A DNA stretch of 64,000 bases from a virus. Taxonomy: Duplodnaviria; Caudoviricetes. Every line of letters begins with the position of its first letter. The first letter of the stretch is position 1. The notes beneath the pieces are model-generated. The model saw only the letters and a program-made list of their open reading frames with translations. It did no database searches and was not told where the DNA came from. The stretch spans positions 1,869-65,868 of the IMG/VR virus record IMGVR_UViG_3300005518_000004. One strand, 5' to 3'. The position numbers and the translations under genes were made by a program. Of this stretch, positions 7,849-12,067 are shown piece after piece.

Positions 7849-8349
7849 TCAGTCCTCCTCGCCCCTTTTTTCCTCCCGTCTAGTATTCACCAGCTTCCGC
7901 TCCACAAATGCCTTCCCCGTCTTGACTGATTTGGCAATCACCGCCGCCTTCACCCCGTTCTCCAGCAGCAGCTCCCGGCTGAGAGACTTCCGACCTTCTG
8001 CTTGTCTTTCGTAAAACACCCAATCCAAGTAGCGAATCCCCTTCTGCCTCACCTCGCGCTGCAACTCCCCGAGTGCCACCTTCAGCTCCTCCAGCCGCGT
8101 CTGGTTCTGCTGGATGAGCGCCGCCAGTATCTCGGCTTCCTCAAACAGACCAACCACGTAGAGCGCCTTATCCGGGCTCAGAATTTCCCTGGGGTCGGGC
8201 AGCTCGTCGTACTTTATGCTGCTTTTGCCCAGCGCGTCATGATGCTTCCCTCGGTTTTGATCGGCACCCTGCATCTCAATTCCCCGCTTTCGTCCACCAG
8301 CGCCCGCTCCATCTCCCATCTGCACACCTCCTCCACTTCCTCCGCCCAC
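7849..8349 (-). CDS. hypothetical coiled-coil protein (true start probably near 8215-8275)
   Basis: Protein-like from KYDELPDP onward; the N-terminal part overlaps the polymerase gene. Confidence 0.65.
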   Translation of the reverse strand: MGGGSGGGVQMGDGAGAGGRKRGIEMQGADQNRGKHHDALGKSSIKYDELPDPREILSPDKALYVVGLFEEAEILAALIQQNQTRLEELKVALGELQREVRQKGIRYLDWVFYERQAEGRKSLSRELLLENGVKAAVIAKSVKTGKAFVERKLVNTRREEKRGEED

Positions 8350-10544
8350 TCCGCGTCTACCTCGATCAGCAGCTCATCATGCACCGGCAGCAGCGCCTCC
8401 GCGTATACACCGCTTGCCCTGATCCCCTCCAACACTCTCTCGACGCGCGCCATCCCGATCTTCATCACGCCGGCGGCAGCGGCCTGGATGGGGAGATTCC
8501 CCGCCTGCCTCAACCCCGCGTACTGAACGCGCTCCAGCTGACTACGGACTTCTGGTACCAGACGGGTGCGCCCAAACATATCCCACACCATCTCGTACCG
8601 CCTAGCCCTCCAATGCTGGAGCTGAAAATACTCCAGCGCGTCTGGGTATAAATTAAACCACTTCTCGATGAATCGCTCGCACCACTCGATGTCCAGCCAG
8701 TCAGGCATGGGCAGGCCAGCAGTCGCATACGTCACCGCCATCAGGTCGTACAACCCGGAGGCAGTTAGCCCATAACAGTTGCTGACTAATTTGCCTTCGA
8801 CGGTGAAGCGCCTGCGGGGGCCTGCATTGCGGATGTCGTAGACCGGCGTCTCCTGGGAAATCGGCACAGGATCTCCTGCCAAGAGACTCCCTGAGCGGCT
8901 AAGCGCCTCGTCGTGCCGAGTGTCAGGCGAAACCATGGGTAGTCCCTTACTAGCACTGGGTACAACTGAGTGGCAGTCAGTACTTGATTCTTGTAACGCA
9001 CCCATTTGTTCCGTCGTGTGTTGCTGCCATTTTCCGAACGTGTCTCTAGCTCTAGATTCCCTGGCGCGTAGTGGCCGTCGTTGTCCTTTCGGCCAATATC
9101 CACTCCCCGATATGTCGGGTGCGGCAGATAGCGCAACATGTACTTTATGAAGTGCTCCGGGCTCTGAAACCTGCACTCGATCCCCCGACCGCCATAGTTG
9201 GGCCAACTCGGGCTCCTTGGGTTGGTGCAGCGCTGCCACATAGCCGAGTAGCGTTCCTGTAATACAAAGGCTCTCGGATCGCGGTATTTGGTCTGTTGGC
9301 ACTTGCACTGTCGGCTTTTGCCACTTAGGATGTTGTCCACCGATACTTCCCTCACTACCTCGCAGGCCGTGCAGGTCATTTTCACATGCCTGTATGCCTT
9401 CCTCCCCAAGCGGTAAATCTTTGACGCCACCCGGAGCGTATCGAACGGGATGCTCTCCACGGCCTGTAACAGCAAGTTCAGATCCCTCGGCCACGGCTTG
9501 GGATAGGGGGATCTTTCGACCGTCTTGTACCCAAACTTTATGGTCCGGGGTCGCGGTGAGTCCTTGGTAGGTGATGACTCGCTTGATGCCTTTGTAGATG
9601 ACTCCTTCATGGCGGACGAACTCCTCTCCGTCCCATACCATATCATGACATGACACGTTTTGTATAGGAATCAGTCCATGGTTTGTGAGCACCTGCTGCC
9701 CATGCGCGATGCATACTCCAAAGTTAATGTTTTTGCACGGATTACGCTGGGATATCTTGTCCACCTTATCGGGGTCGTCAATCCCAAACGCCCTCATCGC
9801 GGTCTCGGTATGGATGTCGCCTCCCGACTCGAACACACGTATCATGGCCCGCTCCCGTGCGCGATCCGCCAGCAGCCGCAGCTCTATCTGGGAATAGTCG
9901 ATGCTAATGAGCCGGCAGCCGGGGCGCGAGATAAAGGCTCGGCGGATCATCTGGCCCAGCTTGGTGCGGGTAGGAATATTTTGCAGGTTGGGAAGTTTAC
10001 TGGCCAGGCGTCCTGTAGACGTCCTAGTAGTGGGCAGCTGGGTGTGTATGATGCGCAGATCGCCTTCTGCTTTCGCCAGCAGCGGCAGCGCGTCGGCATA
10101 AGTGGACTTCAGCTTGGATGCCTCCCTATACTCCAGTATCTTTGGGATAACGGGATGATCGCGCTTCAGCTTCTCCAGCTGCTTTTTCCCCGTCGATATC
10201 CTGAGGCCGCTGGGGGTGCGCTTCAGATCCTTCCCCTCTCCCAGCTTCAGCGCCTTGAACAGTAGATCGGCTATCTGCTCGGCGGAGTCTACGTTGATGG
10301 CGATGTCGTCCCCTGATTCAGCCAAAAACGCGTTGAGGTAGGCAGGCGGGATATAGGAGGTGATCTCCAGCTCTAGTTCCGCCATCTTCGCCGCCAAGAT
10401 CTCGCTAAGCTCCCCCAGCCTCTCCACATCAATCGCCACCCCCACCTGCATCATGCGGCAGATCTGGGGGATGGGGAGCAGATCGAGGGCACGCACGTTG
10501 GCTAAGTCAGGGTGGCCGGGAAGCTCGATGCCGCCGAATAGCAT
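8214..10544 (-). CDS. DNA polymerase family A, polymerase domain, with intein
   Basis: TGRLAS..PNLQNIP, motif A DYSQIELR, motif B R..K.INFGV/CYG interrupted, motif C VHDEL. Confidence 0.97.
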   Translation of the reverse strand: MLFGGIELPGHPDLANVRALDLLPIPQICRMMQVGVAIDVERLGELSEILAAKMAELELEITSYIPPAYLNAFLAESGDDIAINVDSAEQIADLLFKALKLGEGKDLKRTPSGLRISTGKKQLEKLKRDHPVIPKILEYREASKLKSTYADALPLLAKAEGDLRIIHTQLPTTRTSTGRLASKLPNLQNIPTRTKLGQMIRRAFISRPGCRLISIDYSQIELRLLADRARERAMIRVFESGGDIHTETAMRAFGIDDPDKVDKISQRNPCKNINFGVCIAHGQQVLTNHGLIPIQNVSCHDMVWDGEEFVRHEGVIYKGIKRVITYQGLTATPDHKVWVQDGRKIPLSQAVAEGSELAVTGRGEHPVRYAPGGVKDLPLGEEGIQACENDLHGLRGSEGSIGGQHPKWQKPTVQVPTDQIPRSESLCITGTLLGYVAALHQPKEPELAQLWRSGDRVQVSEPGALHKVHVALSAAPDISGSGYWPKGQRRPLRARESRARDTFGKWQQHTTEQMGALQESSTDCHSVVPSASKGLPMVSPDTRHDEALSRSGSLLAGDPVPISQETPVYDIRNAGPRRRFTVEGKLVSNCYGLTASGLYDLMAVTYATAGLPMPDWLDIEWCERFIEKWFNLYPDALEYFQLQHWRARRYEMVWDMFGRTRLVPEVRSQLERVQYAGLRQAGNLPIQAAAAGVMKIGMARVERVLEGIRASGVYAEALLPVHDELLIEVDAEWAEEVEEVCRWEMERALVDESGELRCRVPIKTEGSIMTRWAKAA
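8778..9713 (-). mobile_element. Intein (312 aa, Cys278-Asn589) in PolA motif B
   Basis: Block A CIAHGQQVLT, block B TPDHKVW, block F VYDI, C-terminal VSN followed by extein Cys; removal restores KNINFGVCYG. Confidence 0.93.
8786..9610 (-). CDS. HNH homing endonuclease nested in the +1 frame of the intein (start uncertain: 9646, 9610 or 9475)
   Basis: CTAC...NILSGKSRQCKC module, MWQRCTNP...NYGGRGI, IGRKDNDGHYAPGNL...SEN..N; AGGAG 10 nt before ATG 9610. Confidence 0.85.
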   Translation of the reverse strand: MKESSTKASSESSPTKDSPRPRTIKFGYKTVERSPYPKPWPRDLNLLLQAVESIPFDTLRVASKIYRLGRKAYRHVKMTCTACEVVREVSVDNILSGKSRQCKCQQTKYRDPRAFVLQERYSAMWQRCTNPRSPSWPNYGGRGIECRFQSPEHFIKYMLRYLPHPTYRGVDIGRKDNDGHYAPGNLELETRSENGSNTRRNKWVRYKNQVLTATQLYPVLVRDYPWFRLTLGTTRRLAAQGVSWQEILCRFPRRRRSTTSAMQAPAGASPSKAN

Positions 10545-11885
10545 CTACTGATCCCAATCTTCTACCGGCACTTCCACCGCCAGCTGCTGGTCCATCCACG
10601 TCCCTACTCGCCCCGTCACGTCGGCATCCCTACACCCATACTCCACGACTTCCTCCAGCGGCACATGCCCAATCCCAGGCCTCGGCACCTCCCCGCATAC
10701 TTCTACCAACTCATCAGTCACCAGCCCCGCCGCCTCCGCCCGCTCCCAGATGTCATAGTCAGGCTTGTGGGCGTGCTTGATGATCCTGGCGATGTCACGC
10801 TCCATCGCCGTACGCCTATAGGTGATCTTGAGCTTGGTTTTGAGCTGCGTCTCCTGCCGCTCCCGGTTATCGCTCGCCCAGTCCCATGCCCTCGACAGCC
10901 ACTCCACCATGCGGGCGCGGGAGTAGGGCATCACCAGATCCTCCCAGGACTTCATCCGAATGCCGAATAGCCGCCACCCTAGCGCCTTCAAGCCTTGTGG
11001 TAGGTTGCCTCGGTGATACGCCTCTTGCATGGTGTCACGGAACTTGAACCCGGTAATCCCCATTTGCTCTAACCAGTAAAGGTCGTGTGGAGCATTGTGT
11101 AGGACGAGCCCTTCATAGTGCTTGATGTAGCCCTTGAACCATTCAAGCATTTTTGGCTCATTCAGAATCATGAATCCGAAGTTGGGGGATTGGGAAAACT
11201 GTAGCGAATAAGCGCCTTCTGCCGTGTTTTCTGTATCTACCGCCAGCCAACCTGACTGCCCGTATGCTGCTGCGAGCGGCGCATGGGTTAAAAGAGAGTA
11301 TTGTGCATACCGAATACCATTAGGCGGCACCCACTTCTCCCTCCGCCACTGACCCATGCGCTCAAAATCCTGTATGAGCGGTATCATGAGGCTGGTCTGA
11401 TGCAACCCCGCAGCCGGATGGTAGCTGGGCCACACCCACCCCTCCCACGCCCCTAACACGCTTCTGGCATGTTGCTTCTCCAGCCAGAGCGGTATCCCAT
11501 GGTCCTTGTCTAGCTCAATCTCAGGCACTAGCTTGCACGCGGTCGCCCCCAATGGCACAATCACCCTAGGCCTGCACCTGGCTACCTCCTCTGCCAGCCA
11601 GTACCGCGCACACGCCGACATCTGGGCCTCGGTAGGCTTGGCATTAGATGCTCCTAACCGACACTTAAGTACGTTGGTGATGCGGACCTGGGACCTATCG
11701 AGGCCTGCTAAGGGCAGATACAGCCCATCCAGCTCCACTCCCGCATCTCCCACAAACACCCGCTGCCTCCTGTCCTCTTCCTTCCCCGGCTTCTCCCCAA
11801 TCAGTAGGTAGTCACAGGGCTCGGGGCCGGATGGGTGGACGAAGCGGCAGTTGGGATCGCAGGCGGAGCAGCGGCTAACCATCAA
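10545..11885 (-). CDS. Uracil-DNA glycosylase (family 4-like) fused to 3'-5' exonuclease; N-terminal half of a split SPO1-type polymerase
   Basis: CxxC, IGEKPG, FVG, TNVLKCR, YHPAA; ExoI AVDTE, ExoII HNAPHDL, ExoIII YGCRD. Confidence 0.92.
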   Translation of the reverse strand: MMVSRCSACDPNCRFVHPSGPEPCDYLLIGEKPGKEEDRRQRVFVGDAGVELDGLYLPLAGLDRSQVRITNVLKCRLGASNAKPTEAQMSACARYWLAEEVARCRPRVIVPLGATACKLVPEIELDKDHGIPLWLEKQHARSVLGAWEGWVWPSYHPAAGLHQTSLMIPLIQDFERMGQWRREKWVPPNGIRYAQYSLLTHAPLAAAYGQSGWLAVDTENTAEGAYSLQFSQSPNFGFMILNEPKMLEWFKGYIKHYEGLVLHNAPHDLYWLEQMGITGFKFRDTMQEAYHRGNLPQGLKALGWRLFGIRMKSWEDLVMPYSRARMVEWLSRAWDWASDNRERQETQLKTKLKITYRRTAMERDIARIIKHAHKPDYDIWERAEAAGLVTDELVEVCGEVPRPGIGHVPLEEVVEYGCRDADVTGRVGTWMDQQLAVEVPVEDWDQ

Positions 11886-12067
11886 TCCCTACTAGCGCGC
11901 AATAACTCACAGCCACTGTCATAACCAGCCTGATAAACAGAATCCAGCAAATCCACTACTTCCTCTACCATGCTTCTAGTCCATCCACCAGACTTCCGCA
12001 AATAAGCTACCAACCTGCCTTCTCTATACACGCTAAACCCCTCAGGCATCGCTATCAGATCGTACAT
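11882..12067 (-). CDS. hypothetical protein
   Basis: 61 aa with SD, coupled to neighbours. Confidence 0.6.
   Translation of the reverse strand: MYDLIAMPEGFSVYREGRLVAYLRKSGGWTRSMVEEVVDLLDSVYQAGYDSGCELLRASRD

Follow-up and report, generated by a model that had tools for sequence, protein, structure and literature searches.

The subject of this analysis is an intein in a 64,000-nt stretch of phage DNA (hereafter the window), which comprises bases 1869-65868 of the 65,868-bp viral record IMGVR_UViG_3300005518_000004, a metagenome assembly with direct terminal repeats that is rated complete. The open reading frame (ORF) of a family-A DNA polymerase (polA, 776 codons) occupies 8214-10544 on the minus strand, as do all features of the locus described below, and Pfam DNA_pol_A matches it (1.1e-86) in two stretches that are parted by an insert. 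The insert is a class-1 intein of 312 codons in the polymerase frame (8778-9713), and the same DNA carries a second ORF, in the +1 frame, for an HNH-labelled, endonuclease-like protein (8786-9646).

A preliminary description of the window had proposed that the intein splits motif B of the polymerase and that its blocks A, B and F are intact, and both points hold. The N-extein (9714-10544) ends with ...CKNINFGV in motif B, and the C-extein (8214-8777) begins with CYGLTASGL; the junctions read ...KNINFGV|CIAHGQQVLT...GKLVSN|CYGLTASGL, with the Cys1 codon at 9713-9711, the terminal Asn at 8780-8778 and the +1 Cys at 8777-8775. The boundaries are fixed by an intein-less homologue, L084, which is the closest polymerase found (49% identity in the N-extein) and is contiguous across the site (KNVNFGV|FYGLAAEGL). 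The predicted spliced product has 464 amino acids (aa).

The intein has two well-conserved ends and a middle of a very different character. The N-terminal splicing domain (residues 1-95; 9429-9713) contains blocks A and B, the latter with TPDH at 9551-9540, and the C-terminal splicing domain (residues 285-312; 8778-8862) contains blocks F and G (VYDIRNAGPRRRFTVEGKLVSN). In the AlphaFold model of the 312-aa frame-0 (polymerase-frame) intein, based on a 16-sequence alignment, both ends are beta-rich, with confidence (pLDDT) values of 95-98 and 92-98, respectively, and residues 97-280 have values <50 and nearly no secondary structure. This segment (approximately 8874-9425), which is the polymerase-frame translation of the endonuclease gene, had been called filler in the preliminary description, in agreement with the unstructured loop of about 185 residues that is predicted here. 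The C-terminal domain is kept in all 16 aligned inteins, and the catalytic and neighbouring residues C1, T55/D57/H58, D293, G298, P299 and N312 are invariant in 16/16. Among PDB inteins, the intein profile matches the Mtu RecA mini-intein (2in0, E 0.002), with the match centred on block B. Neither frame of the intein has a match in Pfam or NCBIfam, and an E-value scan of window positions 8000-12000 gave 0 Rfam matches to a group I intron or other RNA. In the phage collection, close DNA relatives of the window are limited to a single 127-nt match.

Two open frames across one intein

The +1-frame ORF has 286 codons from its first ATG (295 from stop to stop), is open from 43 nt into the intein, and ends at TAG 8788-8786, 8 nt before the intein end. 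Over the overlap, the polymerase frame and the +1 frame each have 0 stops, and the third frame has 17. Chance is excluded as the source of this dual-frame openness: when the HNH protein is fixed and its synonymous codons are shuffled, frame 0 is open in 0/2000 trials (mean 8.4 stops), and when the frame-0 protein is fixed, the HNH frame is open in 0/2000 (mean 8.1 stops). The same pair of tests gave 0 and 1 of 2000 for Streptococcus phage Javan255, and 0 and 0 of 2000 for Salmonella phage AG11. The preliminary description had noted that both frames stay open for more than 800 nt and that the +1 stop falls just inside the intein end, and it was right on both counts. The +1 ORF, present in a single copy in the phage genome, matches phrog_374 (6.1e-22), phrog_3377 (2.4e-19) and phrog_8790 (3.6e-16), the first two of which are labelled HNH endonuclease.

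Logan contigs of four public runs (X1-X4), placed on window positions 8400-10100, have no indel within 8767-9665. The X1 and X2 contigs are identical to the window and are not independent of it, because these may be its own source samples; the X4 contig (899 nt) spans 8767-9665 with 50 substitutions and 0 gaps. A further metagenome contig, L100, is a variant whose +1 protein is 95% identical to that of the window, and it aligns to positions 10139-8292 without gaps (1848 nt), with both frames open. Compensating indels, which the preliminary description had named as a way in which it might be wrong, are thus not seen in the intein of other assemblies or of the L100 variant, and the observation of an intein with an out-of-frame endonuclease-like ORF is confirmed. 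The sole indels in the contigs laid on 8400-10100 are at 8715 and 8718, in the C-extein, where one base is deleted and another inserted, 3 nt apart, in the X3 and X4 variant contigs, a compensated frameshift that alters one or two residues.

The L100 comparison also indicates which frame is constrained in each region, based on the ratio of non-synonymous to synonymous changes (pN/pS). For the exteins, the polymerase-frame pN/pS is 0.16 in the N-extein (82/426 differences) and 0.06 in the C-extein (68/486). There are 0/239 differences in the intein N-domain (9713-9475) and 1/76 in the C-domain, the latter too few for pN/pS. The intein middle (9474-8854; 46/621 differences) has a pN/pS of 3.49 in the polymerase frame (4 synonymous, 42 non-synonymous) and 0.17 in the +1 frame (29 synonymous, 17 non-synonymous). 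Variants listed from the public-run contigs, which may represent one strain together with L100, behave similarly: 10 of the 12 in the intein lie at 8861-9245, 8 of these being synonymous in the +1 frame and 0 in the polymerase frame. The remaining two (8826, 9540) lie in the splicing blocks, and only in the polymerase frame are they synonymous. For 17 inteins of the family (136 pairs; L025 and L002 are left out of the set, their boundary patterns having failed), the middle has a mean local score of 234 in the HNH frame, 54 in frame 0 and 31 in shuffles, so that frame-0 similarity of the middle is weak across the family, and the frame-0 ends score 186 and 77. The pN/pS values and the pair scores both agree with the expectation of the preliminary description, namely that the middle is constrained in the +1 frame and the ends in frame 0, and they point to purifying selection on the alternative frame and not on the in-frame middle.

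The +1 protein, modelled in its 274-aa form (from ATG 9610) with a 62-sequence alignment, is predicted to be well folded, with a mean pLDDT of 87.4 and values of 92-98 over residues 41-250 (8861-9490). Values of 56-67 occur only where the protein overlaps the splicing domains, in its N-terminal leader and its C-terminal tail. The model consists of a Cys-rich beta module, a YGGRGI segment, a beta-beta-alpha segment (DIGRKDNDGHY...N...N) and a C-terminal helical domain; at the motif, DSSP assigns strands to residues 170-174 and 186-190 of the predicted model, and a helix to 191-196. Taken together, the two AlphaFold models, which had been suggested as a check in the preliminary description, indicate that each stretch of the DNA is structured in one frame only: the +1 product folds and the frame-0 middle does not. 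Shown in this work are dual-frame openness that is under selection, constraint and foldability that are specific to one frame, and recurrence across many phages (see below).

The two-frame layout among phages

The best phage matches to the +1 ORF sit inside annotated polymerase genes. Relative to the polymerase coding sequence (CDS), the homologous ORF is in the +1 frame in Streptococcus phage Javan255 and in the +2 frame in Salmonella phage AG11 (L002); in both cases, the CDS reads through. Loci L001 and L002 both have the embedded, out-of-frame layout. Further loci came from alignment-based scans (a single-protein scan of viral contigs gave nothing) and were classified by tblastn and an ORF script. 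Among the 80 loci in viral contigs, 16 are embedded out of frame in a same-strand ORF of 566-1287 codons, 58 are free-standing, 2 are fractured, 3 are long non-intein ORFs, and 1 lies under a short ORF. Of the 80 best matches in metagenome contigs, 70 are embedded with intein motifs in the covering frame, 2 are covered without a recognised motif, and 8 are free; genome contigs provided 14 loci, of which 7 are embedded out of frame and 7 are free. Three long HNH-frame ORFs (L026, L044 and L054) were considered as in-frame inteins and rejected, two being GC-rich open frames and one a tandem HNH. A complete in-frame intein of this family was found neither in the 80 viral loci nor in one search for "longer" proteins, which is weak evidence for its absence.

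The hosts are replication genes of two main kinds: DNA_pol_A accounts for 11 and SF2 helicases for 5 of the 18 viral and isolate hosts (2 are unassigned), and for the 33 complete metagenome hosts the corresponding numbers are 25 and 8. Their inteins are of a shared type (C[IL]AEGxLVLTxRGLVPIE...VWDGxEWVxHxGV...ATPDH...VYDIxNAGPRHRFTVxGxLV[HSA]N), the insertion points vary across the family, and L100 and L101 have the intein at the same site as the window. The +1 extein residue is Cys in 54 and Ser in 15 of 69 members.

Other relatives have the same parts in different arrangements. The fractured loci L015 and L034 (2500-4400 each) consist of an N-extein with the N-intein half, an HNH-like gene, and the C-intein half with a C-extein, in three frames. 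In P0041 (1177 aa, from a 5949-nt contig), a UDG-exonuclease-polymerase N-part and the N-intein half are fused in frame to an HNH-like protein that has no Cys-rich module, and the protein ends without a C-intein half. Two smaller cases are also seen among loci scored as free-standing: L133 keeps a decayed N-intein fragment in another frame, and L053 has a 149-residue mini-intein-like stretch (…LLQI|CCIAGD…IVHN|CGVV).

A quick tree of 65 rows has a branch of 98% support, with 15/15 of the +1-embedded sequences, 2/3 of the +2-embedded sequences and P0001-P0012 on one side, and 33 free-standing viral homologues on the other. In a second quick tree of 61 chosen rows, for which 13 free-standing viral genes served as the root, the embedded clade includes 10 free-standing close relatives in at least two places on starred branches, and the state has therefore changed between embedded and free more than once; the direction of change depends on the rooting. 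Several free-standing copies (L103, L109, L116, L137, L150-L152 and L180-L184) have 39-53% core identity to the window, are as near to it as the embedded copies, and fall within the embedded clade in a quick tree. The preliminary description had a free-standing HNH gene invading a mini-intein. Its division into splicing domain, filler and +1 gene stands, and the event is not a one-off in this phage, since the layout is an inherited family design.

We consider the odds about even that the window belongs to a large undescribed intein family in which overlapping coding is a stable, selected design that has moved among many polymerase and helicase sites. At the same level of confidence, the intein codons (…REV..YDG… and …LV[HS]N) would double as Shine-Dalgarno sequence (SD), ATG and stop of the endonuclease gene, and the living relatives, which are free-standing, fractured, fused to the N-intein half or fully overlapped, may record how inteins acquire endonucleases.

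Proposed expression, mobility and activity of the second protein

The following mechanism is proposed for the window. Ribosomes in the polymerase frame would translate straight through the intein, and the first ~95 and last ~28 intein residues would form a Hint splicing domain. The ~185 residues between them would be an unstructured loop without sequence constraint, of which nothing is required except that it contain no stop codons. Protein splicing would remove the 312 residues and restore motif B. In the +1 frame, the same DNA would encode a protein of 274-286 residues that combines a Cys-rich module and an HNH-like beta-beta-alpha segment with a helical, DNA-binding-like tail. It would be made separately, most likely by internal initiation within the N-terminal coding region of the intein, and judging from population patterns it most likely drives the copying of the intein into intein-less alleles (homing). 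We regard this account, of a class-1 intein in motif B with an overlapping +1 endonuclease-like gene, as probable; splicing, separate translation (probably by internal initiation), nuclease activity and homing are the parts of it that we infer.

The candidate internal start of the window (9608-9629) consists of GGAGAGGAG at 9629-9621 and ATG 9610-9608, with a duplex dG of -8.6 and a 274-aa product; the preliminary description had pointed out this SD, 10 nt before the ATG, and it is found there. An alternative start is TTG 9475-9473, which follows GAGGGA (dG -6.4). RNA structure around the 9610 start is unremarkable (z = -1.12). In the family, start and stop signals can be examined in 52 distinct contiguous inteins, which include the window and were resolved by regular expressions (some of the scanned loci are duplicates). 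The endonuclease frame is +1 in 50 of these and +2 in 2. The endonuclease stop lies 8 nt before the intein end in 28/52, the window included, and 50 nt before it in 14/52; the 8-nt stop is usually TAG, its letters being provided by the Leu (NTA) and Val (G..) codons of block G. In 24/52, the open endonuclease frame has an ATG at intein nt 145, which derives from Tyr-Asp-Gly codons just before block B, and 14 of the 24 follow a strong SD (dG <= -7) that is made by Arg/Lys-Glu-Val codons. Thus, in many relatives, the endonuclease gene appears to take its SD, ATG and stop from conserved intein codons. The SD of the best start beats those of out-of-frame, start-like extein sites in 10 of 17 loci (P < 0.05). 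Internal initiation is, on these patterns, the best-supported route for the family as a whole.

With regard to mobility, the intein is much more alike than the exteins in the window and L100 (47/936 differences over the intein, compared with the extein values given above), and the nearest extein differences are at 9744 and 8766. Such a pattern is the usual sign of recent transfer between alleles. The intein is itself a recombination mosaic in this comparison, and 36 of its 47 differences cluster at 9446-9240, in the Cys-rich module of the +1 protein. The intein is also polymorphic in the Jersey-like phages: coverage of the AG11 polymerase gene reaches at least 80% in 151 of 382 records, which bear the intein, and many others cover ~71% of it in two pieces spanning ~2202 nt, with 88-94% identity, and are apparently intein-less. 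The hidden ORF is unannotated in the sampled GenBank records of Jersey-like phages, except for an "endonuclease" feature in VT223. Based on these patterns, the +1 protein most likely promotes homing of the intein into intein-less alleles.

The HNH label of the +1 protein comes from PHROG names and from GenBank annotations of its free-standing homologues. At a weak E value of 1.4, the profile of the 62-sequence alignment can be aligned with I-HmuI (1u3e), with ...IDRIDNDGHYEPGNLRW...N placed opposite ...VDHKDGNKDNNLSTNLRW...N. The aligned residues of I-HmuI are catalytic, with His75 as its general base. The two Asn columns of the motif are kept in the family (N185 in 62/62 and N197 in 59/62). 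The preliminary description had spoken of a recognisable HNH protein, a reading that has its basis in the PHROG and GenBank labels (for the curated models and the position of the catalytic His, see below). Nuclease activity is accordingly suggested by the behaviour of the family rather than by the active site, that is, by insertion in conserved motifs, by an intein more alike than its exteins, and by presence/absence polymorphism. An HNH-like domain that is without the canonical His may work by an unusual mechanism.

A number of observations weigh against the interpretation given here. The selection estimate comes from one close pair, the window and L100, which is itself the mosaic mentioned above: synonymous divergence (pS) is 0.42 in 9474-9240, similar to the exteins, versus 0.078 in 9239-8854 and 0 in the N-domain, although the +1-frame pN/pS is 0.13-0.18 in both mosaic parts. 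The penultimate intein residue is Ser in place of the usual His, a caveat of the preliminary description that is correct, yet this His is usual and not universal, and Ser is common among the relatives (H 33, S 25, A 9, G 2; n=69). The SD and ATG at 9610 are no better than out-of-frame extein controls (26% of single controls do as well; P = 0.80), and the window lacks the family ATG at intein nt 145, because its residues are YQG and not YDG; for these two reasons, internal initiation is only plausible in the window phage itself. As for the putative nuclease, the window +1 ORF has no Pfam HNH match (HNH_3 matches 1/62 family members), and the 62-sequence profile has no PDB relatives below E 0.1. 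The weak I-HmuI alignment pairs VDH with IDR, so that the His column is R in 61/62 sequences and Q in 1. The position before it, acidic (D or E) in 58/62 (D 49, E 9, G 4), is Gly in the window, which has IGR for IDR, as the preliminary description had cautioned. The Gly variant also occurs in P0001, P0006 and P0007, and in L100, which is outside the alignment.

Two of the competing explanations do without a translated, overlapping gene. It is hardly credible that two compensating indels, as an artefact of assembly or sequencing, mask an ordinary in-frame HNH intein. The window is indeed a metagenome assembly, and two of the four public runs may not be independent of it, but frame 0 is stop-free for ~290 codons where 8.4 stops are expected, the intein of a 94-95% variant from other samples is free of indels, isolate genomes (Javan255 and AG11) and 93 other loci share the two-frame layout, and the searched loci yielded no complete in-frame form. 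That the ORF is a silent relic of a past invasion, still open but no longer translated or functional, is very improbable as well: the +1-frame pN/pS of 0.17, the lack of new stops in L100, the confident predicted fold, the retention of all other conserved residues and the much greater likeness of the intein than of the exteins in the two phages all speak against a relic. The unexceptional start signal and the rare Gly (4/62) would suit a relic, but since this Gly is common to P0001, P0006, P0007 and L100, it has persisted.

The remaining alternatives accept that the +1 protein is made. Programmed ribosomal frameshifting from the polymerase frame, which would produce a fusion of N-extein, N-intein half and endonuclease, is decidedly unlikely as its source. 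Conserved SD and ATG elements are present in relatives (the nt-145 ATG in 24/52), model confidence is low in the leader before residue 41 (pLDDT 56-64), and +1 (50) and +2 (2) layouts both occur, and therefore would be hard to serve by one slippery mechanism; these points are set against a +1 frame that is open from 43 nt into the intein, the unexceptional SD of the window, and P0041, a natural in-frame protein of just this composition. We also think it unlikely, though less so, that the +1 protein, although expressed, is not a nuclease and acts as a DNA-binding helper or regulator, another enzyme being responsible for mobility. The Arg at the equivalent of I-HmuI His75, the Gly of the window at the preceding acidic position and the lack of a match to a curated HNH model would fit such a role, as would the fact that NUMOD-type DNA-binding families are the only ones carried by the atlas neighbours of P0017, which is homologous to the +1 ORF and free-standing; these neighbours serve as leads only. 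Against it, homologues annotated as HNH endonucleases occur widely in phages as free-standing genes, the motif keeps its Asn columns, the model has beta-beta-alpha topology at the motif, and conserved-motif insertion, presence/absence polymorphism and the divergence of intein versus exteins fit homing. An internally initiated homing endonuclease, encoded across a splicing intein, is thus the reading we prefer.

Known inteins and neighbouring sequences

Canonical inteins with an in-frame HNH endonuclease are reported by Dalgaard et al. 1997, as cited in the Gosselin preprint. These resemble the present system in combining an intein with an HNH-type endonuclease, and they differ in that the endonuclease is a domain of the intein polypeptide. 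The "Intein-containing DNA polymerase precursor" of Salmonella Jersey-like phages has an intein of the same family and the same hidden ORF (in the +2 frame in AG11), but it has another insertion point in motif B (RQIGKA|C...HN|CELGLGY).

Out-of-frame endonucleases have been reported in three other settings. A preprint on Endonuclease VII-like (IPR004211) inteins places the endonuclease in "frame 3" of the same strand and calls the arrangement rare; for four non-canonical types of homing endonuclease, it lists the hosts together as DNA polymerase, minor capsid, terminase and thymidylate synthase. It shares with the window a splicing domain encoded in the extein frame, an endonuclease ORF that occupies another frame of the same strand within the central region, an in-frame middle predicted to be unstructured, and a proposed origin in which a free-standing endonuclease gene invaded an intein. 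Unlike it, the window family is of phrog_374 type and HNH-labelled, is mostly in the +1 frame and has the layout commonly; its hosts, found in many non-actinobacterial phages, are family-A polymerases and SF2 helicases. Phillips, DeSimone and Gogarten (bioRxiv 10.64898/2026.09.14.751524) describe a +2 ORF for a LAGLIDADG endonuclease in a cyanobacterial DnaX intein, and they credit the idea to Gorbalenya 1998, "Non-canonical inteins". This intein also has an overlapping ORF, with low dN/dS in the endonuclease frame and raised dN/dS in the extein frame, as well as a disordered in-frame middle, and secondary invasion of a mini-intein is proposed; it differs by its LAGLIDADG fold, cellular host gene and single site, whereas the window family is HNH-like and is found in phage genes at many sites. 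The third case, the ShiLan domain of a mycobacteriophage methylase, contains an HNH that is hidden out of frame (Arsenault et al., Genes 2025, PMC11855218). Here too, an HNH-type ORF lies in another frame of an insertion that is open in the host frame, and the route of translation is posed as an open question, but no splicing domain is detectable and the insert is thought to be retained, whereas the class-1 intein blocks of the window are intact.

The fractured genes of Dassa et al., in which only GIY-YIG and Vsr-like genes were found at the fractured loci, are alike in that an endonuclease gene invaded an intein region, with short endonuclease/intein overlaps, in replication-enzyme hosts. The split layout recurs exactly in L015 and L034, where the gene that separates the halves is instead HNH-like. 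In the window, the polA ORF is continuous rather than divided into two ORFs, and the overlap is total.

A search of the literature found no report of this HNH-like family in polymerase or helicase inteins, although supplements from the Gogarten laboratory, which lay outside the search, could list related cases. The question of novelty raised in the preliminary description is thus answered in part: no report of the family in these hosts was found, but novelty is lower than had been assumed because the architecture is already published for other endonuclease types. The system is unusually widespread, contains gene signals within intein codons, and occurs in phages that can be cultivated. Inteins with out-of-frame endonucleases have been treated as rarities, yet the layout is a common one here, with 70 of the 80 best metagenome matches. 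Annotation misses the hidden ORF because gene callers report the polymerase only. Since cultivable phages carry the layout (Salmonella Jersey-like phages and Streptococcus prophages), splicing, internal initiation and homing are amenable to bench tests, and the existence of free-standing, fractured and fused relatives allows the model of "splicing domain first, endonuclease invades later" to be compared across living intermediates.

Adjacent to the polymerase gene is an ORF of 446 codons with a UDG-superfamily domain (10548-11885, minus strand; Pfam 1.2e-24), and the in-frame TAG at which this ORF stops (10545-10547) is located directly before the polymerase ATG. In relatives L007 and P0041, the UDG domain and the polymerase are contained within one ORF, and the alignments to these two stop short of the TAG junction. 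The junction could reflect a split gene, translational coupling or TAG read-through. Among the 46 long ORFs of the window, TAG is the most common stop (TAG 20, TGA 18, TAA 8).

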